This document shows, one piece after another, positions 9,846 to 38,193 of a DNA stretch of 44,287 nt. Below the pieces are notes generated by a model. That model saw only the letters and a list, made by a program, of their open reading frames with translations. It was not told the origin of the DNA and searched no databases. The DNA lies in contig JAAXUP010000009.1 in NCBI GenBank assembly GCA_013335935.1, forward strand, positions 1-44,287. Reading direction: 5' to 3'. Within the stretch, counting starts at the first letter, position 1. Every line of letters starts with the position of its first letter. Source of the DNA: Eubacteriaceae bacterium (GTDB taxonomy: Bacteria > Bacillota > Clostridia > Eubacteriales > Alkalibacteraceae). The position numbers and the translations under genes are program-made.

Positions 9846-9848
9846 AAA

Positions 9849-9945
9849 ATCACCCCTATTAGACAATTATACAGTCAAACAGGGGTTCCTTTATTCTTTG
9901 TAAAATTTAATGTAGTTGGACAAACGAAACGTCCCGCTGTCCGGG
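9849..9945. repeat. Composite repeat, copy 1: hairpin H1 (AATCACCCCTATTAGAC..CAGTCAAACAGGGG), spacer, then REP-b (TGGACAAACGAAACGTCCCGCTGTCCGGG)
   Basis: Same architecture as copy 2 at 10654-10745. The 29-bp REP core is identical between the two. Confidence 0.75.
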
Positions 9946-10747: not shown

Positions 10748-11503
10748 TTATGAAATTCGCATCAGGTTCAGGATATTTCTGGCATCATCGACACCGATCT
10801 GCCCAGGTGCGGAAATCTGTTTAGCTGCTGCAAAGGTCATGCAAGACCCTACCAATTCTCCGGCAAGACGGGATACTACCCCCAGAGCTCCCATGGACAT
10901 GGTGATGCATGGCCGGTCTCCTTTGGATTTCTTCATTTCTAATGTTGCGCTGAGCAAGGTCATGACATCCTCTTCGGATTGGGGCATGACCGCAATTTTT
11001 GTGATATCCGCGCCATACTCCTGCATTTTCATCAGTCGTTTTACCAATTCTTCTTTTTCAGGGGTCTTGAAAAAATCATGGTTTGACATAATGACTTTTA
11101 CATGGTTTTCATGTGCGTATGCAATCAGCTTGTTGATCTCCTCGGCTGTGCTAAAGAGCTCCACATCCACCAGGTCGATCAAGCCGCTTTCGATAGCGGC
11201 CCGATTGAGGGCGAAATATTTCTCTTCGGACATCTCATGGACGCCCCCTTCTTTTTTGGTTCTGAAAGTGAAAAGCAGCGGTTTAGAGCAGATTTCCCGG
11301 ATCTTCCCCAGAAGAGCTTTGACCTTATCCAGATCTTCTACGTCTTCATAGTGGTCGACTCGAAATTCTACGACATCATAGTCAACAGAACTCAGAAATT
11401 TGAATTCCTCTATAACGCCTTCTTCTGTTTTTCCAACGATGGGAACACAGATTTTAGGTGCGCCTTCATTGAAAATGATATCTTTAACTTTTAATGTTTT
11501 CAT
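10748..11503 (-). CDS. aroD: 3-dehydroquinate dehydratase, type I
   Basis: AroD family pattern across its length. Confidence 0.8.
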   Translation of the reverse strand: MKTLKVKDIIFNEGAPKICVPIVGKTEEGVIEEFKFLSSVDYDVVEFRVDHYEDVEDLDKVKALLGKIREICSKPLLFTFRTKKEGGVHEMSEEKYFALNRAAIESGLIDLVDVELFSTAEEINKLIAYAHENHVKVIMSNHDFFKTPEKEELVKRLMKMQEYGADITKIAVMPQSEEDVMTLLSATLEMKKSKGDRPCITMSMGALGVVSRLAGELVGSCMTFAAAKQISAPGQIGVDDARNILNLMRIS

Positions 11504-11544: not shown

Positions 11545-12423
11545 TTAAAATAATACATCCTTCATATAATCGATAGGCATCTCTTCATTTGTAAAGAGTT
11601 TAAAAGCAGCGGCTCCCTGAAAAAGCATCATTCCAAGTCCGTTGATTGCCTTGCAGCCCACTTCCTTGGCAATTTCCAGAAGCCTTGTCTCTGTAGGAGA
11701 ATAGACACAGTCAAAGACAACCAGATCAGGCCGAAGCATGGTTGGATCTGTGACCAACGATTCCCCAAGCATAGGCTTCATCCCCACACCAGTGGCATTG
11801 ATCAGGATATCGCTGGATGCAATTTCTGCTCTTAATTTGTCCTGATCTTCAAGTTTATAGAAAGCTGCCTTGCATGAGGTTTTATCATTTACCTTGGCGA
11901 CAGTTTCCTTCGCTTCAGGAACAAATTCATCAGCTCTATTGAAAACCGAAAGCTCCGCGGCACCGTCTAATCCGGCTTGAACTATGATGGCAGTACCGGC
12001 TCCTCCCGTCCCCATAATGGTGATTTTCTTTCCTTTGATGTCTATTCCTTCATCCGATAAGGCATGCATACATCCGATTCCATCGGTGATGTGACCAGTC
12101 AAAACTCCGTTGTCATTGACAACCGTATTCACTGATCCCGTCAATGCGGACGCATCCGATAATTTATCAAGATACTGGGTGATTTTTCTTTTATTCGGCA
12201 TGGATACGTTGCACCCTCTGATTTTCATTGCGCGAATACCCTTGACCGTATCCTCCAGAGTGCTGTTGTCTACTTCAAAAGCAACATACACATAATCCAG
12301 TCCTAATTTTTTAAACGCTTCATTGTGCATGGTAGGCGACATGCTATGTCTGATCGGATAGGCAATCAATCCAATTAATTCCGTATGTCCGGTGACTCTT
12401 TCCGTTATTGCAATTTTTCCCAT
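11545..12423 (-). CDS. aroE: Shikimate (or quinate/shikimate) dehydrogenase
   Basis: LIGxPIxHSxSP substrate-binding motif and a GAGGA Rossmann. Start at MGKIAIT, preceded by an AGGAGGA RBS. Confidence 0.8.
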   Translation of the reverse strand: MGKIAITERVTGHTELIGLIAYPIRHSMSPTMHNEAFKKLGLDYVYVAFEVDNSTLEDTVKGIRAMKIRGCNVSMPNKRKITQYLDKLSDASALTGSVNTVVNDNGVLTGHITDGIGCMHALSDEGIDIKGKKITIMGTGGAGTAIIVQAGLDGAAELSVFNRADEFVPEAKETVAKVNDKTSCKAAFYKLEDQDKLRAEIASSDILINATGVGMKPMLGESLVTDPTMLRPDLVVFDCVYSPTETRLLEIAKEVGCKAINGLGMMLFQGAAAFKLFTNEEMPIDYMKDVLF

Positions 12424-12568
12424 ATTATCCTCCTGAATAGTTAATAAATTAACATACATAGACAAAAAATAGTTTTATCCAGATTATCAACCTTTGAAAG
12501 TAGTATATTAAAATTTAATATCCCTGTCTAATAGAAACTTTTGCCGAATCTATAGTTTTTGTCTATGA

Positions 12569-16065: not shown

Positions 16066-16497
16066 TCACACACGTTTCAGGATTATGGAATCCATTTCCT
16101 TAACGTTCTTTGAAAAATCACCTACGAGTATGGCTGCCTCCACAGGCTGAATCCTGTCGATGAACTTTTTCATACTTTCAGGTGTATCATTTTTAATACG
16201 ATATGATGTGGCATAGTAGCCCTCGTATGCTAAACCCAGAACGTAGGAACTCAGTTTACCCTTAACGGAAGAATAAATATCATCATGTACAAGAACCAGA
16301 AGTTTTCCCTTTGGATAATTTCTTTCTGAAAAAACTTCGAGATATTCCAACCCTTTAGGAAAAGCAGGCCTTGTCTGCAACTCGGCGATAAAATTAATTC
16401 TTGAAAGCAGTGCGGTCATTTGAGATTTGAACTCGATTCTTCCAGCAAGCACCTGACGTATTTTCGTAAGGTCTGGCAACGAAAACGCTAAAGCCAT
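16066..16497 (-). CDS. Hypothetical protein
   Basis: ORF with an AAAGGAG RBS before MALAFSLPDL. No family recognised. Confidence 0.4.
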   Translation of the reverse strand: MALAFSLPDLTKIRQVLAGRIEFKSQMTALLSRINFIAELQTRPAFPKGLEYLEVFSERNYPKGKLLVLVHDDIYSSVKGKLSSYVLGLAYEGYYATSYRIKNDTPESMKKFIDRIQPVEAAILVGDFSKNVKEMDSIILKRV

Positions 16498-16748
16498 TTT
16501 CTCAACTCCTTTCTGATTCAAACAAGAAAAGCAACTGCGTATTCACAGCTGCTCCAATGACAAATAAAATAAGAATCATGGGCAACTGGCTACCTTTGGA
16601 TCTCCCTTTAGGCCCTACAGTTTTGCGTCCCCGCTTTTCAGCAGGTTTGCCTTTTCAACTAATTCAAAATTGTATATCTGTATGTATTTATGACAATTTT
16701 ATACCCTGGATATCTCTTGTTCAAACATTTTCCTGCGATGCTCCTGTC

Positions 16749-24449: not shown

Positions 24450-25844
24450 ATGTCTAAAGATTGTGATACGCGGTTTAACGACCTGCTTCTGGAGGTTGAA
24501 GCGATAATGGAGTCAACTCCAGACGGACTTTATACTACTGACGCAAAAGGCAATATTTTAAGGTTCAACAGTATGCTGGGAAGAATTCTGGGAATCGACA
24601 CCTCTGTGCTTGCAGGAAACAGTCTTAAGGAACTTAAAGAGAAGGGCTGCTATCCAGAAAATGTAGCCCTCATGAGCATCGAGCAGAAAAAAAGCATTAC
24701 CCTGACTCAGGAGCTCCCAGATGGCAGACATGTGATCATATCTTCTTACCCGATTTTCAGAGACAGCGAAGTGGCTTTCACGGTAACCAAAATTCGGGAC
24801 ATGGACGAGCTCAGCCAAATGCAGGACGAGCTGGAAGCCTTTAAGCGTCTATCCAGCAATTATTACAATGAATTGAAGTTGCTGCGAAAAAGAGCGACTG
24901 AAAGCGGAGAGGTTGTTGTCCAAAGCGAAGCCATGAAAAATGTAGCGGATATCGCCTACCGCATCGCTTCTGTTGACACAACGGTCCTTTTATTTGGAGA
25001 ATCAGGGACCGGCAAGGAAGTCATCGCGAAAATCATCCATACGGAAAGCAAAAGAAATGAAGGCCCTTTCATTAAAATCAACTGCGGCGCCATACCAGAA
25101 AATCTATTGGAGTCGGAGCTTTTTGGATATGCCGAAGGATCCTTTACTGGCGCTGGAAAAGGAGGCAAGCCAGGTTTGCTGGAAGTCGCCAATGGGGGCA
25201 CTCTCCTTCTTGACGAAATCGGGGATCTTCCTCTTTCGCTTCAGGTCAAACTTCTGAGGGTACTTCAGGATCAGGAATACTACCGGATTGGCGATATCAA
25301 ACCAACCAGAACAGATATCAGAATCATCGCAGCCACAAACCGCAATCTGCTTGAAATGGTGAAGTCCGGAAATTTCAGGGAAGACCTTTATTACAGGCTG
25401 AATGTGGTGCAGATCATCATTCCTCCTCTTCGGGAGAGGATCGAAGATATCATTCCCCTGATCTATAATTTTCTGAAAAAATACAATCAAAAATATAATT
25501 TCAACAAGGATATCAATTCCGATGTTGTGGATGAACTCCTCACCTACTCCTGGCCGGGGAATGTCAGAGAGCTGGAAAACACCATAGAAAACATGCTCGT
25601 ACTGAGTCCAAATCATACCATTGAAAAAAGTGCTTTACCAAAAAACATCTTCAAGGATCATGAAGCTGGTTACAATATTCAGTCTCCTAAGGACAAGTCG
25701 AGCCTTGAATTTATGGTGAATAACTTTGAAAAGAAATTGATTGAGAATGCCCTGGCTGAATACGGAAATATGAGCGCTGCTGCTAAAGCCCTTGGCCTCC
25801 ACCGTACTACCCTTGCAAGAAAACTTCACAGGAATCGCAGTTGA
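24450..25844 (+). CDS. Sigma-54-dependent transcriptional activator (PAS sensor, AAA+ sigma-54 interaction domain, Fis-type HTH)
   Basis: Walker A GESGTGKE, GAFTGA, and a C-terminal HTH (AAAKALGLHRTTLARKL). Confidence 0.85.
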   Translation: MSKDCDTRFNDLLLEVEAIMESTPDGLYTTDAKGNILRFNSMLGRILGIDTSVLAGNSLKELKEKGCYPENVALMSIEQKKSITLTQELPDGRHVIISSYPIFRDSEVAFTVTKIRDMDELSQMQDELEAFKRLSSNYYNELKLLRKRATESGEVVVQSEAMKNVADIAYRIASVDTTVLLFGESGTGKEVIAKIIHTESKRNEGPFIKINCGAIPENLLESELFGYAEGSFTGAGKGGKPGLLEVANGGTLLLDEIGDLPLSLQVKLLRVLQDQEYYRIGDIKPTRTDIRIIAATNRNLLEMVKSGNFREDLYYRLNVVQIIIPPLRERIEDIIPLIYNFLKKYNQKYNFNKDINSDVVDELLTYSWPGNVRELENTIENMLVLSPNHTIEKSALPKNIFKDHEAGYNIQSPKDKSSLEFMVNNFEKKLIENALAEYGNMSAAAKALGLHRTTLARKLHRNRS

Positions 25845-26066: not shown

Positions 26067-26132
26067 ATACTTGCATTAACTATATGCAGGCAGGGTATGA
26101 ATTGATTGAAAAGATTAAAGGAGATGTTGATT

Positions 26133-27446
26133 ATGTATTATGATCCCATTATGTTCAACTGTATGGAAGGACTTGATATTGAGGAGCATATGATAGCCAC
26201 CTATTATATGCGAGCGGAAATGCCTGTAGAAGCCATCAAATTCGCTCAGGCAATCGCCGCAGAACAGGCTACCGGAACCTGGCTGAATGTTCCCTTTGAA
26301 ACAGCCGAAGTACGAAAAAAACATGGCGCAAAAGTAATAGGTATCTACGAGGTCCCCGCTTATGACAGGGAACTTCCCAAGAACCTGGAATACAGAGATT
26401 TCATCATTAAAATCGCCTTCCCTAATGTAAATATCGGGAATAATTTCCCCATGATTTTCACCACCCTGATTGGAAACATCTCTGCAGGGCGGATCAAGCT
26501 GGTGGATATCGAATTTTCGAAAAAATATCTGGAGAATTTCAAAGGTCCGAAATTCGGAATCGACGGCCTCCGGAAGTATCTGGAGATCCCAGACAGACCT
26601 CTCACCCTTGCCATGATCAAGCCCGATGTCGGCTGGACCCCTGAGCAAGGCGGCATTATGGCATATCAGGCCTTCTCAGGAGGAATCGATATCATAAAAG
26701 ATGATGAGCTTGTCGTTGGAGACTCAGATTTTTGTCCATTGACCGCGCGTGTCAAAAAAATAATGGAAGCTGCAAAAAAAGCCGAGGAAGAAACCGGCGA
26801 GAAAAAAATGTACACGCCAAATATCACTGATGATGTCTCCAGACTTAAAGACAACGCCTATAGAGCCCTTGATGCCGGGGCCAACGCCTTGATGATCAAT
26901 ACCTACACTGTAGGATTTTCCGCCTTCAGGATGATCGCAGACGATCCAAACATCAAGGTCCCAATCCTATCCCATCCGGACTACGCAGCCGCCCAATCCT
27001 ACGCTCAGGATACAGGCGTTGCCATCTATCTCCTATGGGGCAAACTGGTGAGAATGGCTGGAGCCGATCTTGCCGTTACCACGAATTATCATGGGAAGAT
27101 TCCCGTTATGAAGGATAGATATATCCAAAGCTGCATCGCTCTTACCATGCCCTTTGGTAAATTGAAACGATGCTTCCCCGCTCCCGGAGGAGGAGTATAT
27201 CAGGGGATCGTTCCAGAGACTATTGACGAAATCGGCAAAGATGTGATACTTGCTGCCGGCGGAGCTGTCCATGGACATCCTATGGGTGCCGTCGCTGGTG
27301 GAAAATCTCTGAGACAGGCTATCGATTCGGTTATGGAAGGCGTCAATATCCGGGAATACGCAAAGGACAAGCCTGAGCTGCAGGCTGCAATAGACGCTTG
27401 GGGAATCTCTAATGAGAAGGAAGATCTCTTCGATATGAAGAAATAA
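26133..27446 (+). CDS. RuBisCO-like protein (form IV RuBisCO large-subunit family)
   Basis: GGIDIIKDDE aligns with RuBisCO GGLDFTKDDE, and MIKPDVGW with KPKLG (K177 replaced by D). TIM-barrel C-terminal domain. Start at MYYDP, preceded by an AAGGAGA RBS. Confidence 0.75.
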   Translation: MYYDPIMFNCMEGLDIEEHMIATYYMRAEMPVEAIKFAQAIAAEQATGTWLNVPFETAEVRKKHGAKVIGIYEVPAYDRELPKNLEYRDFIIKIAFPNVNIGNNFPMIFTTLIGNISAGRIKLVDIEFSKKYLENFKGPKFGIDGLRKYLEIPDRPLTLAMIKPDVGWTPEQGGIMAYQAFSGGIDIIKDDELVVGDSDFCPLTARVKKIMEAAKKAEEETGEKKMYTPNITDDVSRLKDNAYRALDAGANALMINTYTVGFSAFRMIADDPNIKVPILSHPDYAAAQSYAQDTGVAIYLLWGKLVRMAGADLAVTTNYHGKIPVMKDRYIQSCIALTMPFGKLKRCFPAPGGGVYQGIVPETIDEIGKDVILAAGGAVHGHPMGAVAGGKSLRQAIDSVMEGVNIREYAKDKPELQAAIDAWGISNEKEDLFDMKK

Positions 27447-27449
27447 CAT

Positions 27450-27478
27450 TTGACTTGACGTTCGTTTTCAACTATAAT
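27450..27478 (+). promoter_or_regulatory. SigmaA promoter: TTGACT, 17-nt spacer, TATAAT
   Basis: Seen directly. It begins at the RLP stop codon and drives the riboswitch transcript. Confidence 0.6.
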
Positions 27479-27495
27479 AAACAAAAATATACAAG

Positions 27496-27655
27496 GTTAT
27501 AGGTGCTCTTAAAGAGAGAATAGGGAATCAGGTGTAAATCCTGAACGGGCCCGCCACTGTAACAGGTTAGTGTATGCCATTGCCACTCATTGTTCGGGGA
27601 AGGCGGCATATGCAACGATCCTTAAGTCAGGAGACCTGCCTATAACTTGAATGAT
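27496..27655 (+). promoter_or_regulatory. Cobalamin (B12) riboswitch
   Basis: Matches the cobalamin riboswitch core AGGGAAtcaGGTGtAAATCCtgaACGGGCCCGCCACTGTAA and the B12 box GTCAGGAGACCTGCC. Confidence 0.85.
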
Positions 27656-27693
27656 CTGTCCCGAGTCAGGATGGAGATTTGTGAGGATGTTGG

Positions 27694-27728
27694 AAAGTCC
27701 ACGCTTTTATAAGCGTGGACTTTTTTGT
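27694..27728 (+). terminator. Riboswitch expression-platform terminator
   Basis: aaagtccacgctt ttat aagcgtggacttt followed by T6, immediately before the RBS of the first gene. Confidence 0.75.
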
Positions 27729-27745
27729 GTGAGAGGAATGACGAA

Positions 27746-28771
27746 ATGAAAAAACTTATACTGGCTAAAACTGAAATCTTCAAAACAGTGGTCGCACCTG
27801 AAATTCATTTGGAGGATCGTGAAATTTTAATTAAGGTTGCTTTCAGCGGCATCTGCGGGGCGGATATGAAAAGCTTTCGAAAAGGACACAGGGATCTGGT
27901 ACTTCCCCGAGTCTTAGGCCATGAAATCACCGGAACTATTCACAAAATGGGTAAAAATGCAAAAACGAACTATCAGATTGGTGACAGGGTACAGATATTT
28001 CCCGGAGTATTTTGCGGTGAATGTGAATATTGTCTAACCGGGCGAGATAACCTCTGTGACACCATGCAAATCCTGGGTTTTCACATTGACGGAGGACTCC
28101 AGGAATACCTTGTTGTCAATCGGGAGATCCAGGAAAATATGCTTAACCTCATCCCAGACGGGCTCCCTATGGAATATGCCACCTTCGCCGAACCCCTTGC
28201 CTGTTCCATCAATATCCAGGATAAGCTGGATTTAGGCACGGAGGATACCCTGCTGATCCTGGGTGCCGGAAGACTGGGTATGATAAATTATTTTCTTGCC
28301 AGGAAAAGAGGGCTAAGAAAGGTCATTATAGCGGACAACTTCTCTCCAAGGCTGGACAAAACCCTTTATGATAACACCATTGATTTGACAGCGTCCGATC
28401 CATTAAAGACGCTTGCTGAAATTACCGGGAAAATAGGAGTCACTGGGGTAATCATCTGCACACCTTCCCCAGCTTCCCTGGAGCTTGCCATCAGCCTGGC
28501 CGCTAAAGGAGGCAAGATCGGTTACTTCAGCGGTCTCCATGAATTCCCGATCTCAACAAAACTTTTAAACTATTTGCATTACAAGGAGCTTGTTGTTACA
28601 GGATCCTACGGCTGTACCCTTCAGGGGAATAAAGATGCACTGGAGCTTTTACGGGATAAGCTTATTCCTTTCGATAAAATCAGCCTCAATTTTTTCAGCC
28701 TGGAGGATACCCAAAAGGCAGTTGAAATGCTTGAAAACAGAGAAATTCTTTCAGCAATCGTTAAACTATAA
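27746..28771 (+). CDS. MDR-family Zn-dependent dehydrogenase (threonine/sorbitol-dehydrogenase-like)
   Basis: GICGADMK, GHE, structural-zinc cluster CGECEYCLTGRDNLC, and GAGRLG Rossmann. Confidence 0.75.
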   Translation: MKKLILAKTEIFKTVVAPEIHLEDREILIKVAFSGICGADMKSFRKGHRDLVLPRVLGHEITGTIHKMGKNAKTNYQIGDRVQIFPGVFCGECEYCLTGRDNLCDTMQILGFHIDGGLQEYLVVNREIQENMLNLIPDGLPMEYATFAEPLACSINIQDKLDLGTEDTLLILGAGRLGMINYFLARKRGLRKVIIADNFSPRLDKTLYDNTIDLTASDPLKTLAEITGKIGVTGVIICTPSPASLELAISLAAKGGKIGYFSGLHEFPISTKLLNYLHYKELVVTGSYGCTLQGNKDALELLRDKLIPFDKISLNFFSLEDTQKAVEMLENREILSAIVKL

Positions 28772-28820: not shown

Positions 28821-29936
28821 ATGGAAAACAAAGGAATGGAAATGAAGGAATTTGGCGGTCTTATCGCCAAGCTGTCAAGAAGAGAGAACTTGTCAAAGGA
28901 GGAATCAGACAGAGCCTTCACATCGCTATTAAACAACGAACAAAACGACATGCAGCAGGGAGCGTTCCTTTCAGCCCTGACCACCAAAGGAGAGACTATC
29001 GAGGAGATGGCTGCCTGCTGGAGAGCGATCTATCACGTGGACACCATAAAACCTGAAACCCTCCTGGATATGAGTTTCACTGACAATTCCGGAACAGGTA
29101 TGGATACCTTCAAGACCTTCAATGTCAGCACGGCTGCTTCCATAATTGCTGCTGCTGCAGGGATCAAAATGGCCAAGCATGGTTCAAGAGCCCTAACCTC
29201 CATGTGCGGAACGATTGACCTCCTGGAAACATTGGGCATCGATGTGGAAGGCGGCGCTGAGCCGGTTGTCCAAAGTATTGAAAAGACTGGCATAGGCATC
29301 TTTAATGGAATGAGCCCGAAGGTTCATCCTCAGGCGCTTGGAAGGATCCTTTCACAAATTTCATTTGGAACGATCCTGAACATATCCGCTTCTCTGGCAA
29401 ATCCTGCCCTTCCAAAATATGCTGTCAGAGGTGTGTACTCAAAGGAAATGCTGGTTCCTGTTGCCAAGCTCATGAGAGAAATCGGATATATACGGGCAAT
29501 GATCATCTTTGGGGAGGCCGAAGGCTTCAGCACCGGAATGGACGAAGCCTCCACCATTGGAAAAACCTACGTAGCCAAATTAAGTGACGACGGAGCCATC
29601 ACCGAATATTGTTTCACACCGGAAGATTTGGGGATCACAAGAGGAAACCCTGATGATCTAAGACCCCTTAAGGACAGAGAGGCTGAAGCGGTAAGGTTTA
29701 TTGAAATACTTAACGGAAGCGACAAGGGCACAAGAAGCGATATCGTATGTCTGAACAGCGGACTGATCTTAGAACTGATGGGTGTGGCTAACAGTCTTAA
29801 AGAAGGCTATGAAATGTCAAAAAACATTATCGACGACGGCCGAGCCTATCAAAAGCTCTTTGACTGGGTAACCCATCAGAATAGCGATGACAGTGGTGTC
29901 AAAAAACTCGAAATTTTGGCAGCAAAGGCCAACTGA
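28821..29936 (+). CDS. TrpD-family paralog (glycosyl transferase family 3, anthranilate phosphoribosyltransferase-like)
   Basis: Aligns along its length with the bona fide TrpD at 35128..36159 (RENLSxEE, KGET.EE, TFNVSTAAxIxAAAAG, KHGSR), but the PRPP-binding motif GTGGDG is GTGMDT. Confidence 0.7.
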   Translation: MENKGMEMKEFGGLIAKLSRRENLSKEESDRAFTSLLNNEQNDMQQGAFLSALTTKGETIEEMAACWRAIYHVDTIKPETLLDMSFTDNSGTGMDTFKTFNVSTAASIIAAAAGIKMAKHGSRALTSMCGTIDLLETLGIDVEGGAEPVVQSIEKTGIGIFNGMSPKVHPQALGRILSQISFGTILNISASLANPALPKYAVRGVYSKEMLVPVAKLMREIGYIRAMIIFGEAEGFSTGMDEASTIGKTYVAKLSDDGAITEYCFTPEDLGITRGNPDDLRPLKDREAEAVRFIEILNGSDKGTRSDIVCLNSGLILELMGVANSLKEGYEMSKNIIDDGRAYQKLFDWVTHQNSDDSGVKKLEILAAKAN

Positions 29937-29937
29937 C

Positions 29938-30165
29938 ATGGTCATGTATATAATAAAGTCTGATGAAGGATATCTTAGGATCCCAAAGGATGCCCCGGCG
30001 GAGGTCACTTCCATGGAAAAAGCTTCGGTTTACACGGACTTTGAAAAATGCAGAGCCCTCCTGGAGGCGGCAGCTCATGAGGTTACATTCTCCTGCTTGA
30101 GAATAGCAGAAATCAGAATAACCGAAAAGGATCATATTTTCCCTCCGTTTTCATCTGAATTATGA
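29938..30165 (+). CDS. Small hypothetical protein (75 aa), apparently translationally coupled to the TrpD paralog
   Basis: The ATG lies 2 nt after the upstream stop. No homology recognised. Confidence 0.3.
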   Translation: MVMYIIKSDEGYLRIPKDAPAEVTSMEKASVYTDFEKCRALLEAAAHEVTFSCLRIAEIRITEKDHIFPPFSSEL

Positions 30166-30207: not shown

Positions 30208-31467
30208 ATGACTGATTTTTTTGTAAACAACCGAAAGAAGCTTATAGAAAGTTTGAATGATAAATCTCTGCTGGCCGTGTTCTCAGGGTCTGCTCCTCAC
30301 CGTTCTGCAGATGCGTATTACTTTTTTGATGTGAATAAAAACTTTTACTATTTGACGGGAATCGAGAGGGAAAAATTCATCTATGCTGCGGTCAAGACAA
30401 AGGAAATTGTGGAGGAGTTTCTGTTTATCGAAAAAGCCGACCCGGTTCTAGAGAAATGGACCGGCAAGAAGATGACAAAAGAAGAGGCAACGGACATTTC
30501 AGGAATAAAGACCATTTATTTTCTGGACGAATTCCATGGAAAGGTCAATTCTCTGGTTGCCAGCAACAACAAGCCCATTGAAAATGTTGCTCTTGACATG
30601 TACCGGAATGCTTTTGATGACAAGCATAGTCCTGCCGGTGATTTTGCCTCTTACATCAAGGAGAAATACCCCCAGTTAAAAATCGACGATATTTCGAAAA
30701 AATTCGCTGTTCAGCGCTTTATCAAGTCTGATTCTGAGGTTCAAAGAATCAGGAAAGCCGTGACCATCACGAAAAACACCTTCGAACTCCTGTTGGAGAA
30801 AGCACCCATGTGCACATATGAGTATGAGCTTGAAGCCTATCTGGATTTTTCTTTTAAATTCCAGGGTACGGACCACGCTTTTGATACTATTGCCGCTTCA
30901 GGAAAAAATGCCACCGTCTTGCACTATGTGGACAATAATTCACAGATGACATCCGGAGACCTGGTCATGTTCGATTTCGGGGCCAGATACGAAAATTACT
31001 GTGCCGACATCAGCAGGACCTTCCCTTTGAACGGAAAATTCAACACAAGGCAAAAACAAGTATATAACGTTGTTTTAGAGACTTTGAAGGAGACCTCCTC
31101 ACGGATGAAACCGGGCATTTCCATGAAGGAAATCAATGAGTTCGCAAAAGATATGCTTGCAGAAGGCGCCATCAGGCTGGGCCTCATCAAGGAAAAATCC
31201 GAAATCGGAAAATACTATTACCACGGAATTGGACATCCCCTGGGACTTGATACCCACGACGTGGGAGACCGGGAGATGGTTTTAAAGCCTGGGATGGTCT
31301 ATACCTGTGAACCGGGACTTTATATCGAAGAGGAAGGCATCGGCATCAGGATCGAGGACGACATCCTGATCACCGAAAATGGAAGTGAAAACCTGTCAAA
31401 GGAAATCATCAAAGAAGTCGATGAGATTGAAGCGTTCATGGCTAATGCCATGCGGTTAAAAGCTTAA
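30208..31467 (+). CDS. M24-family Xaa-Pro aminopeptidase / creatinase-fold peptidase
   Basis: Pita-bread metal ligands (DFGARY..D, HGIGH, E..E) and an N-terminal creatinase-like domain. Confidence 0.8.
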   Translation: MTDFFVNNRKKLIESLNDKSLLAVFSGSAPHRSADAYYFFDVNKNFYYLTGIEREKFIYAAVKTKEIVEEFLFIEKADPVLEKWTGKKMTKEEATDISGIKTIYFLDEFHGKVNSLVASNNKPIENVALDMYRNAFDDKHSPAGDFASYIKEKYPQLKIDDISKKFAVQRFIKSDSEVQRIRKAVTITKNTFELLLEKAPMCTYEYELEAYLDFSFKFQGTDHAFDTIAASGKNATVLHYVDNNSQMTSGDLVMFDFGARYENYCADISRTFPLNGKFNTRQKQVYNVVLETLKETSSRMKPGISMKEINEFAKDMLAEGAIRLGLIKEKSEIGKYYYHGIGHPLGLDTHDVGDREMVLKPGMVYTCEPGLYIEEEGIGIRIEDDILITENGSENLSKEIIKEVDEIEAFMANAMRLKA

Positions 31468-31517: not shown

Positions 31518-31530
31518 TAAATGATACAAA

Positions 31531-31580
31531 AGAGATATGGAAACTTAACAAAAGTTTTCATATCTCTTTTTAGTTTTTGC
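31531..31580. terminator. Bidirectional terminator serving the aminopeptidase operon (+) and the trp operon (-)
   Basis: Stem agagatatggaaactt/aagttttcatatctct with T-runs on both sides. Confidence 0.7.
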
Positions 31581-31718: not shown

Positions 31719-32516
31719 CTAATTGCTGATTGCATCCTTAAGTTCCCCTACGAACTTCCTGACCTTCTCTACGGAACTTCCGTCTTCCAGACCTTCCTCG
31801 ATTTTTTTGATGATTGCGCTCCCAACGATGAGTCCCTCCGCCAGGTCTTTGAGTTCTCTGATAGCTTCAGGGCTTGATATTCCAAACCCGATTGCCCGGG
31901 GCACAGAGGTGTAACCTGCAATGCTTTCAAGAAACTCTCCCAGGTTCTCCGAAAAACTGCTTCTCATACCGGTTACCCCAAGAGAGGAAACACAGTAGAT
32001 GAACCCCGAGGCGTCTTCAACGATACTCTTTACCCTTTCATTTGACGTCGGGGCAACCAATGGTATCAGATCTATGGCATGACTTTTCAGGGCATCTTTA
32101 AAATCCTTTCTTTCTTCCAAAGGCAGGTCTGCGATAATCAGACCGTCCATTTCTGTCTCATCACACCTCATAATGAATTTATCCATACCATACCTTAGGA
32201 TCGAATTGTAATATAGAAGAAATGCCATGGGTATCTTCGTTCTTTTCCTAACCCGCCTGATCATTTCAAAGATATCGTCAATATTAATATTATTTTCCAG
32301 TGCTCGCTGAGCAGCCCGCTGGATCACGGGCCCATCTGCCAGGGGATCAGAATAGGGGATGCCCAGTTCTATGATATCTGCACCGGCCTCTTCCATGGTG
32401 TAAATGAGTTCTTCTGTCTTTTCCAGCGTCGGATCACCTGCGGTGATATATACGATAAGCGCTTTTTTGTTTTCGCCCTTCAGTTTTTCGAAATTCGTGG
32501 TTATTTTACTTTTCAT
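31719..32516 (-). CDS. trpA: Tryptophan synthase alpha subunit
   Basis: TrpA family. Its start overlaps the trpB 3' end. Confidence 0.85.
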
Positions 32517-33720
32517 GTCGTCTGCCTCCCAGAATTTCTGCCACCTGCTCCACATCCTTGTCCCCTCTGCCTGAAAGATTCACGATGATGATATCCTCCT
32601 TACGGGTGGTTGGAGCAAATTTTTCCACATATGCCAGAGCATGAGAACTTTCCAAAGCGGGTATGATTCCCTCTATCTGGGAAAGGAGCTGGAAGGCTTC
32701 AATGGCTTCATCGTCCGTGACAGACACATATTGAACCCTGCCTGTGTCGTGAAGGTAGGCATGTTCCGGTCCGATGCCGGGGTAGTCCAGCCCTGCGGAG
32801 ACAGAATGTGCCGGCAGGATCTGCCCATAGTCATCCTGAAGAAGATAGGTCATCATACCGTGTATGATTCCTAAGGATCCTTTCGTGAAAGAAGCTGCAT
32901 GCTTCTCCGTTTCCACTCCCTCACCGGCAGCTTCCACCCCAATGATCTTTACCTCCTTGTCTTCAATAAAAGGATAAAAAAGACCCATGGCATTGCTTCC
33001 GCCGCCGACACAAGCCACCAGATAATCAGGAAGTCTTCCTTCCTTCTCAAGAATCTGCACTTTGGCCTCGTCTCCAATGATCCTTTGAAAATCCCTGACC
33101 ATGGTTGGGTATGGGTGCGGCCCAACCACCGAACCGATGACATAGTAGGTTTCATCCACATTTGCGACCCAGTCCCGGATAGCTTCGTTGGTGGCATCCT
33201 TCAGCGTTTTTGTCCCTGAAGTTACAGGGATGACCTTTGCTCCCAAAAGTTCCATTTTAAATACATTAAGGGCTTGTCTTTTAACGTCTTCCTCTCCCAT
33301 GAATACCTCGCACTTTAAACCGAACATGGCGCAGATGGTCGCTGTGGCAACTCCGTGCTGCCCGGCTCCCGTTTCTGCAATGATCCTCTTTTTGCCCATT
33401 CTTCTTGCCAGAAGCACCTGACCTACCACATTGTTGATTTTATGAGCTCCTGTATGATTGAGATCTTCCCGCTTGAGGTAGATCTTTCCACCTCCAAGCT
33501 TTTTCGTAAGGTTTTCCGCATAATATAGAGAAGTCGGCCTTCCGGAATACTCTTTCAGATAATACAGGTAGTCTTTTTTGAACTTTTCATCATTTATTGC
33601 CTTGATATATTCTTCCTCAAGCTCAATCAGAGCATTCATCAGGGTTTCAGGAACGTACTGACCTCCATATTGCCCAAACCTGCTTTGAAGTTTATATTTA
33701 TCCTTGTCATTTATTTTCAT
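32506..33720 (-). CDS. trpB: Tryptophan synthase beta subunit
   Basis: PLP-lysine region HTGAHKINN, and GGGSNA. Confidence 0.9.
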
Positions 33721-34333
33721 AGCTTCTCACCTTTTCGATAATTTTTCTTATTTTCTCTTTATCCTTGAATCCACCAGTTTCGACACCGCTGCTGATATCC
33801 AGTGTATCGATTCCCTCTATTTTCAGAGCTTCCTCTATATTTTCTTCGTTTATTCCACCAGCCAGGATCAGCTCCTTGTCGCATTTCAGATCACTTAGCA
33901 TCTTCCAGTCAAAAACTTCTCCTGTCCCGCCGTATGCCTTTTTATTGAAAGCATCTAAAAGATATCCATCGGCATTAAAGGTTTCCATTACCCCAAGGTC
34001 TTCAGACGACCTTATCCTAAACGCCTTCCACACCTTCATCCCTGGGCTGTTTTTTAAAACCCTCACATCATCTCTGGTTTCCTCACCATGAAGCTGAACA
34101 ATATCCAGTCCACAGAAATCCGCGATCCTTTTAACCTCTTCTACGTCCTCATTTACAAATATTCCGACTTTTTTGATATTCTTGTCCAATAGACAAGACA
34201 GTTTCTTTGCCATTTCAGGGGTTATCTGTCTTCTGCTTTTCGCGAAAATGAAACCCACATAATCAGGCCTGAACGCATTGACATAATCTACGTCCACCTG
34301 CCTTCTTATTCCGCATATCTTGACCTTTTTCAT
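33707..34333 (-). CDS. trpF: Phosphoribosylanthranilate isomerase
   Basis: [12 protein letters not shown]-terminus, TrpF family. Confidence 0.85.
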
Positions 34334-35109
34334 TTTTTCCCTCTTAGCTCAGCAATCTTAGCGGAAATCGAGTCCGCTCTCATGAAGGTTTCCCCAATAA
34401 GGACACCATTCACTCCTACACCTCTAAGATACTCCATATCTTCATAACTATCAATCCCACTTTCACTGATCACGATTTTTCCCTTGGGAATATATTCTAT
34501 TAGCTTTTCTGTGGTTTTGATATCCGTTACGAAAGTATTTAGATCCCGGTTGTTGATTCCAATAATTTCAGCATCTGTAGAAAGGACTCTGTCCAATTCT
34601 TCCTTGTTATGAACTTCCGTAAGGACCTCAATTCCCAGCTCACGGGCAGTTTGGCTTAACGTTTTAAGTTCCAGGTCTGTGAGAGATGCCGCAATCAAAA
34701 GGACCGCATCTGCGCCAAGGACCTTCGCCTCGATGATTTGGTAAGGATCCAGTATGAAATCCTTCCTCAGGATCGGCCTGGTTGTATTTTCTTTAACCAG
34801 GGGGATATAGATTTTGTCTCCCAGAAAGAAATCTGTTTCCGTAAGAACCGATATTGCCTGGATATCACTTTTCTCATATTCTCTGGCGATTTCCACAGGA
34901 TCAAAATTTGGCCTGATCAGTCCTTTTGAGGGAGAGGCTTTCTTCACCTCTGCTATGATTGAAAGTCTGTCCCCCAGAACCAGACTTTTTGAAAATCTTT
35001 TAGTCATCCTGGTATCTTCGATCATGTCCCATAGCATATCCGATGATATCCGCGCTTTTTCCTCTATGAGAGCTTTTCTCTTGTTTTCATTTATTCGATC
35101 AAGTATCAA
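34330..35109 (-). CDS. trpC: Indole-3-glycerol phosphate synthase
   Basis: TrpC family (IIAEVKKASPSKG). Confidence 0.85.
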   Translation of the reverse strand: MILDRINENKRKALIEEKARISSDMLWDMIEDTRMTKRFSKSLVLGDRLSIIAEVKKASPSKGLIRPNFDPVEIAREYEKSDIQAISVLTETDFFLGDKIYIPLVKENTTRPILRKDFILDPYQIIEAKVLGADAVLLIAASLTDLELKTLSQTARELGIEVLTEVHNKEELDRVLSTDAEIIGINNRDLNTFVTDIKTTEKLIEYIPKGKIVISESGIDSYEDMEYLRGVGVNGVLIGETFMRADSISAKIAELRGKK

Positions 35110-35127
35110 CTTGTATTCTTCCTTCCT

Positions 35128-36159
35128 TCAGTAGTGAAATATTTTAGCAACCTCTTGAGATATTCTGATAAATTCATTCAGCTTTTCCATTGCCCTGCCA
35201 GAATCGATGGCTTGTCTGGCCAATTGGATTCCTTCCATAATGGAGTCGGCTTTTCCTCCCATATAGATCGCTGCTCCTGCATTAAAGAGAATAATATCTC
35301 TAACTGTGCCTTCCCCCCCGTTTAACAGGGATATGATCATTCTGGAATTTTCTTCAGGATCTCCCCCTTTTATGTCATCAATATTTCCCCTTTTGAATCC
35401 AAAGCTTTCCGGTTCGATATAATAGGTTTTGATTTCTCCATCTTTCAGTTCTGATACCTTCGTCGCTGCGGAGATACTGATTTCATCCAGTCCGTCCATC
35501 CCGTGAATGATCAGCGCTCTCTTTAGTCCCAGTTCCTTTAGCACCTGTGCGATGGTTTCAGTCAATTTTTCATCGAACACTCCGATAATCTGACTGTTTA
35601 CCATTCCTGGATTGGCGAGAGGTCCAAGGATATTGAAAATTGTTCTGACTCCCAGTTCTCTTCTGGCTTTCATGACATACTTCATGGAAGGATGGTATTT
35701 GGGTGCGAAGAGGAAGGTGATTTTCGCTTGAGCAAGACATCTCTGGGCACCTTCCGGATCCAAATCAATATTTACTCCAAGGTCTGCCAGGACGTCAGCA
35801 CTGCCGCACTTGCTGGATACACTACGGTTTCCATGCTTCACCACTGTGACTCCCGCAGCTGCTGCAACGATTGCTGCCAGGGTAGATACATTGAAAGTAT
35901 GCTTGCCGTCTCCCCCTGTGCCGCAGGTATCGATGGCATTTTCATCCAGTACATTAACCTTGGAGGCTTTCTCTCTCATTACCTTTGCGCAGCCGGTTAT
36001 TTCTTCTTTTGTTTCACCCTTTGCTCTCAGCGCAGTCAGGATGCCGGCGATTTGTGAGTCGGTGAGCTTTCCGCTCATTATTTCATTCATCAGAGTTACC
36101 ATTTCATTTTCAGAAAGGTTCTCCCTGTTGATCAGTTTTTCCATCATTTCTTTATACAT
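35128..36159 (-). CDS. trpD: Anthranilate phosphoribosyltransferase
   Basis: DTCGTGGDGKHTFNVST and KHGNRS motifs. Confidence 0.9.
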   Translation of the reverse strand: MYKEMMEKLINRENLSENEMVTLMNEIMSGKLTDSQIAGILTALRAKGETKEEITGCAKVMREKASKVNVLDENAIDTCGTGGDGKHTFNVSTLAAIVAAAAGVTVVKHGNRSVSSKCGSADVLADLGVNIDLDPEGAQRCLAQAKITFLFAPKYHPSMKYVMKARRELGVRTIFNILGPLANPGMVNSQIIGVFDEKLTETIAQVLKELGLKRALIIHGMDGLDEISISAATKVSELKDGEIKTYYIEPESFGFKRGNIDDIKGGDPEENSRMIISLLNGGEGTVRDIILFNAGAAIYMGGKADSIMEGIQLARQAIDSGRAMEKLNEFIRISQEVAKIFHY

Positions 36160-36171
36160 TCATTATTCCTC

Positions 36172-36735
36172 CTACATATTCAAAAAGTTACGTAATATCT
36201 CTTTCCCGCTTTCTGTCATGACCGACTCTGGATGAAATTGAACGCCATATATGGGGTAATCTCTGTGTTTTAAACCCATGATTTCTCCGTCTTCTGTCCT
36301 GGCGGTGACGATGATTTCTTCAGGGAGGTTTTCATCGTTCACCTTCAGGGAGTGGTACCTCATAACCGTTAGTGGATTTTTTATATCCTTGAAAAGACCT
36401 TTGCCATCGTGATCGATTCTGGAAGTTTTCCCATGAAACATCAGTCTGCTCTCGACGATCTCCCCGCCAAACACCTCGGCAATGGCTTGATGTCCCAGAC
36501 AAACGCCCAAAACCGGAATTACCTTGCCAAAGCATTCAATAACTTCCTTTGATATGCCCGCACTTGAAGGATATCCTGGTCCAGGAGAGATGATGATGTG
36601 CTGGGGCTTCAATAGCAGAAGGTCCTCTATGGTGATTTCATCATTTCGTATGACTTTAACATCTGGATTGATCTCCCCAATATACTGATAAAGGTTATAG
36701 GTAAAGGAATCGTAATTATCGATGATCACTACCAT
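36172..36735 (-). CDS. trpG: Anthranilate synthase component II (glutamine amidotransferase)
   Basis: Class I GATase with GVCLGHQ (catalytic Cys) and a His/Glu triad. Confidence 0.85.
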   Translation of the reverse strand: MVVIIDNYDSFTYNLYQYIGEINPDVKVIRNDEITIEDLLLLKPQHIIISPGPGYPSSAGISKEVIECFGKVIPVLGVCLGHQAIAEVFGGEIVESRLMFHGKTSRIDHDGKGLFKDIKNPLTVMRYHSLKVNDENLPEEIIVTARTEDGEIMGLKHRDYPIYGVQFHPESVMTESGKEILRNFLNM

Positions 36736-36738
36736 TTT

Positions 36739-38193
36739 TTATTCCCCAGCTTTCTTAATGGTTTCCAGAACCGCTCTGGCCTTGCTCATTGTTTCCCTGT
36801 ATTCTGATTCAGGTACTGAATCTGCGACGATTCCCGCCCCTGCCTGGACGATGGCATAACCGTCCTTAAAAATGACCGTTCGTATGGTGATGCAGGTGTC
36901 CATGTTTCCGTTGAAGCCGAAGTAGCCCACCCCTCCGCCATAGATGCCTCTCCGGGTATTTTCCAGTTCCTCGATAATTTCCATTGCTCTTACTTTTGGG
37001 GCCCCTGATAGGGTACCTGCCGGGAGACACGCTTTGAGAGCATCAAACATATCGTACTTCTCCCTGATCCGCCCTGCTACATTAGATACGATGTGCATAA
37101 CATGGGAGTATTTCTGTATTTCCATGAAGTGGGTAACTTCAACGGAGCCAAATTCTGAAACCCTTCCGATATCGTTTCTGGCCAGATCCAGGAGCATCAG
37201 GTGTTCTGCCCTTTCCTTATCATCTTCCAAAAGATCAGCTGCCAGTTCCTGGTCTTCCTCTTCCGTCTTACCTCGAGGCCTCGTTCCTGCAATGGGACAA
37301 GTTTCGATAACTCCGTCAGCAACTTTAACCAGCAGTTCCGGGGAAGAACCGACGACACAGTAGTCCTCAAAATTCATGTAATACAGATAGGGTGATGGAT
37401 TTACGCTCCGCAGTACCCGGTAGGCCGCAAAAGGATCGATGTCGGTCTTTGCCTTAAGCCGCTGAGACAGAACCACCTGGAAGATATCACCTTTACGGAT
37501 ATATTCTTTCGCCTGTACGACTTTTTTGCAGAAGGATTCTTCCGTCTCATTGCTCTCGAAGACCACTTCTCCGCTTTTTACACTTTTATCGGGTTTAACC
37601 GGTGATGTTCGTATTTCTTCCGCAATATCGTTTAACTTCTTCTCGATTTCGCCATAGGTCACGTTCTGTTTGAAACTATTGTAGACAATGAATATCTTCT
37701 GCTTCATGTGATCATACACGATGATTTCCTTCATCATCAAAAGATGAATCTCCGGCACATTCAGCTCATCAGGATTTTCCTGAGGTAGCGTCTCGATCTC
37801 TCTTACCAGGTCGTAAGTGACATATCCTACCGCACCACCAGGAAATTCGGGTATAATCAGGGAATTGGTCTTAGGGTATTTGATATCCCCAAAATACATC
37901 TTTAGATTGTCCAGGCTCTTTCCTTCATGAAGGACTTCCCCGTCTTCTGTTGCGATTTTCGTTATCCCATCCCGGCTGGTAATCTCTCCGTAAGGGTTTC
38001 TTCCAATATAGGAATATCTTCCCCATTTGCTTCCGCCCTCAACGCTTTCCAACAGAAAACTCTTGCCTCCATTGCATAGCTTCTTAAAGATGCTGATGGG
38101 TGTATCCGTATCTCCATGGATCACTGAAACAAAAGGGATTACTGTATATTCTTCTTTTAGTTTTTGATATTCTTCCATTGATGGGTAAAGCAT
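36739..38193 (-). CDS. trpE: Anthranilate synthase component I
   Basis: Chorismate-binding enzyme family (LLESVEGG...GAGIVADS). Confidence 0.9.
   Translation of the reverse strand: MLYPSMEEYQKLKEEYTVIPFVSVIHGDTDTPISIFKKLCNGGKSFLLESVEGGSKWGRYSYIGRNPYGEITSRDGITKIATEDGEVLHEGKSLDNLKMYFGDIKYPKTNSLIIPEFPGGAVGYVTYDLVREIETLPQENPDELNVPEIHLLMMKEIIVYDHMKQKIFIVYNSFKQNVTYGEIEKKLNDIAEEIRTSPVKPDKSVKSGEVVFESNETEESFCKKVVQAKEYIRKGDIFQVVLSQRLKAKTDIDPFAAYRVLRSVNPSPYLYYMNFEDYCVVGSSPELLVKVADGVIETCPIAGTRPRGKTEEEDQELAADLLEDDKERAEHLMLLDLARNDIGRVSEFGSVEVTHFMEIQKYSHVMHIVSNVAGRIREKYDMFDALKACLPAGTLSGAPKVRAMEIIEELENTRRGIYGGGVGYFGFNGNMDTCITIRTVIFKDGYAIVQAGAGIVADSVPESEYRETMSKARAVLETIKKAGE

Follow-up and report, generated by a model that had tools for sequence, protein, structure and literature searches.

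What does a second TrpD-like phosphoribosyltransferase do in a bacterium that carries a complete trp operon? The question is raised by a 44,287-nucleotide stretch of a Eubacteriaceae genome (GenBank assembly GCA_013335935.1, contig JAAXUP010000009.1, positions 1 to 44,287), hereafter the window, in which an open reading frame (ORF) of 371 amino acids resembles trpD and lies outside the trp operon. An earlier reading of the letters alone (the original prediction) had called this gene, here termed TrpD', riboswitch-regulated without giving the class of the riboswitch. We find that the class is cobalamin, and that TrpD' is the middle gene of a conserved unit of three, which is linked to CobT and other genes of the cobamide nucleotide loop. 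It is this link, rather than the altered GTGMD motif, that points to function, and the unit very likely belongs to cobamide nucleotide-loop or lower-ligand metabolism. With less confidence, we lean towards the fuller statement that the unit is a module of a phosphoribosyl pyrophosphate (PRPP)-dependent phosphoribosyltransferase and a dehydrogenase, acting with CobT in the activation of the cobamide lower ligand, including ribotide formation. No other cobalamin genes were found in the window, so the functional link to B12 comes from the comparison of loci. The elements of the unit, and the trpD that serves as comparator, are listed here.

27450..27478, + strand: sigma-70-like promoter, TTGACT-17-TATAAT, 11 of 12 matches, 5 nt upstream of the riboswitch.
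27484..27657, + strand: Cobalamin riboswitch aptamer, RF00174, full-length model match (Rfam 112.8 bits against a gathering threshold of 31.5, E 1.2e-27).
27694..27729, + strand: intrinsic terminator with a 13-bp stem, AAAGTCCACGCTT / AAGCGTGGACTTT, loop TTAT and a T-run; the expression platform of the riboswitch.
27746..28771, + strand: Zn-dependent, NAD-type medium-chain dehydrogenase (ADH), Pfam ADH_N and ADH_zinc_N, of the threonine/polyol-dehydrogenase branch.
28821..29936, + strand: TrpD', of the 'GTGMD' subfamily of TrpD-fold phosphoribosyltransferase paralogues.
29938..30165, + strand: 75-amino-acid ORF (MVMYIIKSDEGYL...KASVY...), starting 1 nt after the TrpD' stop; NTW71190.1, annotated as hypothetical.
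35128..36159, - strand: canonical trpD, outside the module (TIGR01245 448 bits; GTGGD, KHGN, the Arg of helix α8, DE motif).

The terminator hairpin contains GC pairs and appears in the minimum free energy and centroid folds alike. The ADH gene starts with the ATG at 27746, its 341-amino-acid product being exactly NTW71188.1, and the TrpD' gene begins after a gap of 49 nt; the terminator scan found no + strand terminator between the two genes, the next one lying at 31528..31570. The claim of riboswitch control is thus borne out, a Cobalamin riboswitch and a terminator preceding the dehydrogenase, TrpD' and 75-amino-acid ORF. Judged from these two elements, transcription of the unit is B12-repressible: transcripts starting at 27450 would pass the riboswitch only at low corrinoid, the terminator at 27694..27729 forming otherwise, and read-through would yield the dehydrogenase, TrpD' and the small protein.

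The ORF at 28821..29936 is present exactly as first described; the NCBI gene model starts 15 nt later, at 28836, and encodes 366 amino acids (P0001, 100% identical). Equally sound were the statements that a genuine trpD sits inside a complete trp operon (trpE-G-D-C-F-B-A, minus strand, 31719..38193), that TrpD' aligns with its product over nearly the full length (residues 14-350 against 5-331, 35% identity, E 7e-56), and that the two proteins differ in the quoted strings, DNSGTGMDTFKTFNVST in TrpD' and DTCGTGGDGKHTFNVST in the window TrpD, with DNSGTGMD against DTCGTGGD. GTGMD is kept in all of the 120 closest database homologues and is therefore a family character, neither an error nor a chance change. 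Members of the subfamily are 50-72% identical from Firmicutes to Euryarchaeota, whereas identity to the TrpD of the same genome is the 35% given above. A hidden Markov model (HMM) of 16 subfamily members gave 565-678 bits to the 120 top homologues and 249.5 bits to the window TrpD. Scans with two degenerate peptide patterns, one containing GTGMD, confirmed at least 558 relatives in a one-genome-per-species collection and at least 534 on metagenome contigs. Carriers among the acetogens and other Bacillota are Acetobacterium, Eubacterium limosum, Alkalibacter, Fuchsiella, Desulfosporosinus, Desulfofarcimen, Dehalobacter, Dehalobacterium, Formimonas and Syntrophomonadaceae; other bacterial carriers are Desulfobacterales and further Thermodesulfobacteriota, Dehalococcoidales and Aquificota, and archaeal ones are Methanothrix, Methanomassiliicoccales, Methanosarcinales, ANME-1 and Syntrophoarchaeum. 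The signature of the subfamily reads GTGMD, [KR]HG[SA]R and L-x-R-[IV]-L-x-x-I-x-F-G-[ST].

In fold, TrpD' is an anthranilate phosphoribosyltransferase (AnPRT, the TrpD enzyme, EC 2.4.2.18). It carries both TrpD domains, PF02885 (58 bits) and PF00591 (190 bits), and shares with TrpD the helical bundle, the α/β domain and the PRPP and Mg ligands. Its AlphaFold2 model (predicted local distance difference test, pLDDT, 89.7; predicted template modelling score 0.90) retrieved from the PDB with Foldseek a top 50 made up entirely of AnPRTs (template modelling scores 0.76-0.93), and phmmer matched it to a solved AnPRT, 9ucw, at E 2.6e-50. It also passes TIGR01245, the trpD equivalog model, with 260.4 bits, the cut-off being 199 and the score of the true TrpD 448, which is why public annotation uniformly names it anthranilate phosphoribosyltransferase or TrpD. 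We nevertheless do not file it as TrpD, because it lacks GTGGD, KHGN, the α8 Arg and a place in the trp operon. The genomic setting of TrpD, as a member of the trp operon and the only copy, is not that of TrpD', which stands behind a Cobalamin riboswitch, is paired with a dehydrogenase and has a canonical trpD in the same window. TrpD' represents a large, tightly conserved TrpD-fold subfamily, a real paralogue of TrpD outside tryptophan synthesis.

The label 'TrpD2-type', which the original prediction had attached to the gene, has to be dropped. All three models tried are below cut-off (YbiB model NF006005, 23.8 bits against 185, with a match to residues 23-72 only; PRK07394, 51.9 against 287; PRK09071, 50.4 against 257). 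TrpD2/YbiB proteins are like TrpD' in their superfamily fold and in being paralogues of TrpD encoded away from the trp operon, but TrpD' retains the phosphate ligands and the catalytic DE motif, stands far nearer to TrpD than to YbiB, and is under a Cobalamin riboswitch. Membership of the nucleoside phosphorylase-II family, with which TrpD' shares the N-terminal helical and α/β domains, was likewise rejected: its models reach 45-53 bits against cut-offs of 409-535 (TIGR02644, 53 against 409; TIGR03327, 51.7 against 535), match residues 14-165 only, and no third Pfam domain is present.

We mapped the active centre through a MAFFT alignment and two HMMER alignments to solved TrpDs, taking residue roles from a review of AnPRT structures (PMC9835598) and from the study of the Thermococcus enzyme (PMC5537072). 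The positions below are numbered as in the enzymes of Mycobacterium tuberculosis (Mtb), Sulfolobus solfataricus (Sso) and Thermococcus kodakarensis (Tk).

Mg ligand on α5: Mtb S119 (Ser of FNVST), TrpD' Ser103; retained.
Ribose contact in the β2-α6 loop: Mtb R139, TrpD' Arg123; retained.
5'-phosphate contacts: Mtb S142 and S143, TrpD' Thr126 and Ser127; retained.
Metal-binding DE motif: Mtb D251 and E252, TrpD' Asp241 and Glu242; retained.
KH of KHGN: TrpD' Lys119 and His120; retained.
Anthranilate carboxylate anchor: Mtb N138, in TrpD' Ser or Ala in 120 of 120.
Anthranilate carboxylate anchor on helix α8: Mtb R193, Sso R164, Tk R159, in TrpD' an invariant Leu177.
Fourth residue of the Gly loop: Mtb G110, TrpD' Met94.

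Ser103, Thr126-Ser127 and Asp241-Glu242 are invariant or nearly so throughout the family. In contrast, the equivalent of KHGN is KHGSR in the window protein and [KR]HG[AS]R in the family (Ala in 83 and Ser in 37 of the 120), and the placement of Leu177 at the position of Arg193 agrees across the three independent alignments. GTGGD has been called the signature motif of the TrpD family (PMC5537072), and TrpD', with GTGMD, departs from it; substitutions at both carboxylate-anchor positions are reported to raise Km for anthranilate (PMC9835598). TrpD' also has new invariant residues, including Asn89, Ser165, Arg175, Ser191 and Arg203, and, around the acceptor channel, a two-residue insertion ('NG') and a two-residue deletion relative to TrpD. 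PRPP binding is thus likely kept and the acceptor is likely no longer anthranilate, because both carboxylate anchors are replaced in addition to the change from GTGGD to GTGMD. The proposal of a different substrate made from the bare sequence is strengthened by this loss, while its stress on altered PRPP binding is not, given the conserved Mg and phosphate ligands. By analogy with TrpD, the chemistry is probably the attack of a nitrogen nucleophile on C1 of PRPP.

To see with what TrpD' works, we assembled 160 loci from Bacteria and Archaea, clustering the ORFs of 80 genome loci and annotating all 160 with BLAST and HMMs; the genome and metagenome sets overlap in lineages, especially Methanothrix, so that the counts below are not those of independent events. 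ADH adjoins TrpD' in 133 of the 160; among the 99 loci with sufficient flanking sequence it does so in 98. ADH precedes TrpD' in Bacillota, Dehalococcoidales and most Archaea, whereas Desulfobacterales and Aquificota have TrpD' first, then the small ORF where present, then ADH; the pairing spans these four bacterial groups together with Methanothrix, Methanomassiliicoccales, ANME-1 and Syntrophoarchaeum. TrpD' and ADH are obligately coupled. Two such pairs occur in one metagenome-assembled genome (MAG) of the Methanotrichaceae (MFD04716.bin.3.283; L038 and L055), one of them with an archaeal CobT directly upstream, the other without.

The nearest named relatives of ADH are threonine, sorbitol/xylitol and sugar-acid dehydrogenases. 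Its nearest NCBIfam models (Tdh, YdjJ-like) all stay below their cut-offs, Tdh with 141 bits against 458, and in the PDB it comes closest to RspB, Tdh and sorbitol/xylitol dehydrogenases. The ligands of the catalytic and structural zinc ions (Cys in GICGAD, His-Glu in GHE, Glu in AEP, and four Cys in CGECEYCLTGRDNLC) and the GxGxxG motif were read from the sequence and checked for conservation. An acidic residue following GxGxxG suggests NAD over NADP. Together with the relatives, these features speak for a sugar-like or amino-alcohol substrate that carries a secondary alcohol.

All 8 bacterial loci examined with Rfam have a Cobalamin riboswitch directly 5' of the orthologous pair, in the same orientation. 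With an nhmmer model made from nine Rfam-validated examples it was found directly upstream in 90 of the 160 loci, none of them recognisably archaeal. On a Bacillota MAG contig (L019, 2268..2405) the match lies 3' of TrpD' instead of 5'.

The next commonest neighbour of TrpD' is CobT (EC 2.4.2.21), which lies no more than 2.8 kb away, in the same orientation, in 61 of the 160 loci. The CobT is of the archaeal type in 33 of the 61 (a neighbour of this type scored 307 bits with TIGR00303 against a cut-off of 240) and of the bacterial type (TIGR03160) in the rest; the two types are not homologous according to a published comparison (PMC7617358). Moreover, ADH is fused to bacterial CobT in 19 loci, as a single polypeptide of about 705-777 amino acids with ADH at the N-terminus and a complete CobT at the C-terminus. 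These are L016 (9103..11238), L053 (1735..3936) and 17 more, from Desulfobacterales/Thermodesulfobacteriota and metagenome contigs; in the fusion tested the CobT part, residues 377-707, gave 426 bits with TIGR03160 against a cut-off of 319. An apparent second dehydrogenase after TrpD' in several loci turned out by BLAST to be a stand-alone CobT that had clustered with ADH through the fusion proteins. The module is thus repeatedly coupled to the CobT reaction, physically and genetically, whichever CobT family is present.

Some pairs sit within nucleotide-loop operons. In a Dehalococcoidales MAG (L063) the order is cbiB-cobD-[riboswitch]-ADH-TrpD'-cobT-cobS-cobC-x-cobU, and a metagenome contig (L130) has the same core, cbiB-cobD-[riboswitch]-ADH-TrpD'-cobT-cobS-cobC. 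Fuchsiella alkaliacetigena (L017) has riboswitch-ADH-TrpD'-bzaA-bzaB-cobT, its two ThiC-family genes being assigned by Pfam PF01964, and Aquificota have btuF-TrpD'-ADH-...-btuFCD-cobU. In two Aquificota MAGs (L058 and L079), neither of which gave a riboswitch match with the HMM, TrpD'-ADH is flanked by two radical-SAM activase-like paralogues and a pair of btuF-like genes, and btuC, btuD and cobU come next. In an E. limosum MAG, riboswitch-ADH-TrpD'-small stands as a separate unit; this is the species in which, according to the same comparison, anaerobic lower-ligand synthesis was identified (PMC7617358). A PF06189 5'-nucleotidase gene lies 3' of TrpD' or the small ORF on the same strand in L024, L031, L036, L037, L039 and L056 only, which are closely related and mostly Acetobacterium. 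By analogy with CobC, it could be a dedicated phosphatase for the ribotide product.

The third gene of the unit is apparently translationally coupled to TrpD', as its start directly behind the TrpD' stop suggests. By an HMM of 18 such ORFs, a homologue of about 70 amino acids lies directly 3' of TrpD' in 34 of the first 80 loci; over all 160 the count is 53 (for example L003 9096..9323, L053 1533..1748 and L045 7479..7688), in Bacillota, Desulfobacterales and one Actinomycetes MAG; archaeal and Dehalococcoidales loci gave no match to this HMM. The consensus is M-x-L-Y-x-[LI]-K-x-x-x-G-Y-[LI]-[KR] ... K-A-S-V-[FY] ... T-E. The small ORF has no match in Pfam or NCBIfam; 2 relatives came from a word-indexed search and 7 weak matches from exhaustive phmmer, with no informative fusions. 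The AlphaFold2 model (pLDDT 88) has the topology β-β-β-α-β and gave no significant PDB match.

From genomic context and residue conservation we infer the use of PRPP, the kind of acceptor, the ADH reaction and the order of steps. TrpD' would bind Mg-PRPP and transfer its 5-phosphoribosyl moiety to a nitrogen nucleophile without the ortho-carboxylate found in anthranilate, giving a β-N-ribotide. As nucleophile, a neutral heteroaromatic base of the kind used as lower ligands would be most likely, with the pyridine that carries the phosphoribosyl group in CobT's donor as the other candidate. ADH would next act on the ribose or ribotide part of the product, and the CobT/CobS step would receive either an α-ribotide made without nicotinate mononucleotide (NaMN) or a regenerated phosphoribosyl donor for CobT. 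The unit would thus be an accessory branch of lower-ligand activation beside the CobT step. Like CobT, TrpD' would be a phosphoribosyl transferase tied to lower-ligand activation, and in bacteria the two share cobalamin-riboswitch control. However, no CobT model was among the matches of the TrpD' family, and CobT takes NaMN to α-ribotides, whereas a TrpD-type enzyme with α-PRPP would give β-ribotides unless these were processed further. Nor do the two replace each other, since they co-occur in at least 61 loci. A precedent for CobT fused to the enzyme of a neighbouring lower-ligand step is BluB-CobT2 of Propionibacterium (PMC10038948), with the difference that BluB is an O2-dependent flavin destructase, whereas the partner of TrpD' is a Zn/NAD medium-chain dehydrogenase that apparently occurs in anaerobes only and depends on TrpD'.

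Several points weigh against this picture. CobT adjoins the pair in just 38% of loci, and no single model explains the chemical role of ADH. TIGR01245 scores above its cut-off, so residual anthranilate activity is possible. The invariant Arg175 lies two residues before the lost α8 Arg, beside the two-residue deletion, and Arg203 is another new invariant; given these two residues, a carboxylated acceptor such as nicotinate may be used. The very high conservation of the sequence across domains argues for one universal substrate over variable lower bases. Finally, the bza operon of E. limosum together with cobT reportedly suffices for the formation of 5,6-dimethylbenzimidazole and cobalamin in Escherichia coli; should this hold, the known pathway would not need the module in all cases.

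The remaining neighbours of the unit in the window are as follows.

26106..27446, + strand: RuBisCO-like gene, with RuBisCO large-chain N and C domains; another transcription unit.
30208..31467, + strand: Xaa-Pro aminopeptidase-like gene (M24; aminopeptidase-P-like) by Pfam, possibly co-transcribed with the TrpD' unit.
31528..31570, + strand: strong terminator-like hairpin of 19 pairs from the terminator scan, closing the + strand transcription unit.

The aminopeptidase-like gene does not recur in the clusters of neighbouring genes at related loci and is not a conserved member of the unit. The best NCBIfam models of the RuBisCO-like protein, 2,3-diketo-5-methylthiopentyl-1-phosphate enolase and type III RuBisCO, are all below their cut-offs; its gene follows a PAS/sigma-54-dependent activator gene (24450..25844, +) and ends 4 nt short of the riboswitch unit's promoter. 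We rejected nucleotide salvage of the AMP-phosphorylase/RuBisCO type known from archaea, the RuBisCO-like gene lying upstream of the promoter and riboswitch and being absent from the recurrent neighbours. Elsewhere in the window, no Rfam T-box or other known leader was found at the gathering threshold upstream of trpE in the trp operon. A c-di-GMP-I riboswitch (RF01051, 73.2 bits, 16578..16661, -) lies upstream of a 151-amino-acid ORF (16066..16521, -) that belongs to no Pfam family, and an IS200/IS605-type Y1 transposase gene (9087..9866, -) lies near shikimate-pathway genes on the same strand, encoding type I dehydroquinase (10748..11503) and shikimate dehydrogenase (11545..12465).

Three sub-models contend within the reading that we favour. 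TrpD' might act as a nicotinate phosphoribosyltransferase of a new type (nicotinate + PRPP -> NaMN + pyrophosphate) that recycles the nicotinate released by CobT, so that PRPP and base would be converted, in sum, to α-ribotide. We entertain this stereochemically elegant scheme as a tentative possibility: among the substrates and products of CobT, NaMN alone has a PRPP-using synthesis, the module goes with both non-homologous types of CobT, and it occurs in apparent salvagers (Dehalococcoidales) as well as in producers, while the conservation across domains suits a universal substrate and Arg175 and Arg203 could hold the carboxylate. Yet the carboxylate of nicotinate is three bonds from the nucleophilic nitrogen, as in anthranilate, and the equivalents of Arg193 and Asn138 are nevertheless lost; besides, ADH, the most constant partner, gets no role. 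It does get one if TrpD' makes the β-ribotide of a benzimidazole or purine from PRPP and ADH inverts C1' through transient oxidation of a neighbouring ribose hydroxyl, handing an α-ribotide to CobS. The acceptor pocket, turned hydrophobic and smaller (Arg to Leu, Asn to Ser/Ala, Gly to Met), fits such a base; the constant pairing suits consecutive steps, ADH comes from the sugar/polyol branch, a 5'-nucleotidase gene follows the unit in the Acetobacterium loci, and the pair lies immediately 5' of cobT-cobS-cobC in L063 and L130. Still, we rate this route as somewhat doubtful. To our knowledge a redox-neutral epimerisation has no precedent in the branch of ADH, it is odd that a route independent of CobT should adjoin CobT or form one protein with it in 38% of loci, and such high conservation is unexpected in an enzyme that binds lineage-specific bases. 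Just as doubtful is the boldest form of this idea, in which the ADH-TrpD'-small unit would give anaerobic Bacteria and Archaea a further, undescribed way to activate the lower ligand, yielding NaMN-free α-ribotides by an enzymatic step new to B12 assembly and concealed by the anthranilate phosphoribosyltransferase annotation.

The third sub-model would place the unit outside ribotide formation. Acting upstream of CobT or CbiB, the pair might make or modify the lower-ligand base, or supply the aminopropanol(-phosphate) linker, the Tdh-like ADH oxidising L-threonine. This appears unlikely, even though the nearest named models of ADH are L-threonine 3-dehydrogenases and the unit stands between cobD and cobT in L063 and L130. 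In many anaerobes no gene is known for the L-threonine kinase step. A candidate for it was proposed in Dehalobacter (PMC4285132), and the ADH::CobT fusion recalls that of BluB and CobT2, a base synthase joined to the activating enzyme (PMC10038948). Against this, a PRPP enzyme has no chemically sensible part in linker synthesis, the Tdh models are far under their cut-offs, and the unit is also found in apparent salvagers. Labelling studies and the bza pathway, moreover, already explain anaerobic benzimidazole synthesis. That the unit encodes a B12-independent bypass enzyme merely repressed by B12, like metE or nrdDG, is very unlikely: Cobalamin riboswitches reportedly also precede genes for B12-independent isozymes, metE and nrdD among them (PMC8620254), and the window has no nearby cob genes, but the CobT fusions and the embedding in cbiB-cobD-...-cobT-cobS-cobC operons speak otherwise, and the link to archaeal CobT persists in lineages without riboswitches. 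Least probable of all, even taken jointly, are a second anthranilate isozyme, a nucleic-acid binder of the TrpD2/YbiB type and a phosphorylase feeding the RuBisCO-like protein. The passing TIGR01245 score, the unanimous public annotation as TrpD and the RuBisCO-like gene directly upstream have to be set against the canonical trpD in the trp operon, the lost carboxylate anchors, the wide margins by which the YbiB and nucleoside-phosphorylase models miss, with no C-terminal phosphorylase domain found, and a RuBisCO-like gene that lies upstream of the promoter and riboswitch and does not recur in the clusters of related loci.

A module acting with CobT in lower-ligand activation, the reading to which we return, has not been described in the literature that we searched, where nothing links a TrpD-like protein or the partner dehydrogenase to cobamides. 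A comparative study by Rodionov et al. in 2003 (JBC) is said to list hypothetical B12-regulated genes tied to lower ligand assembly, and an earlier comparative mention of the pair is possible. The Dehalobacter corrinoid-starvation paper does not mention TrpD' (PMC4285132), nor is the pair mentioned in the searched passages of a 2024 survey (PMC7617358) of acetogens and methanogens that covers 26 corrin and lower-ligand enzymes.

The locus presents what is very likely a TrpD-fold enzyme recruited to B12 metabolism, with a modest chance of new chemistry. The trpD label that TrpD' carries in several hundred genomes inflates calls of the tryptophan pathway and masks a B12-linked function. Biosynthesis of vitamin B12 is generally held to be essentially mapped; if the module regenerates the donor, offers an alternative activation or processes the base, a gap in anaerobic cobamide assembly would be filled, predictions of cobamide producers and cobamide types in microbial communities would be affected, and a handle for guided cobamide production would be gained. 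Kept at 50-70% identity from acetogens to methanogens, the unit may mark an undescribed step of B12 assembly.

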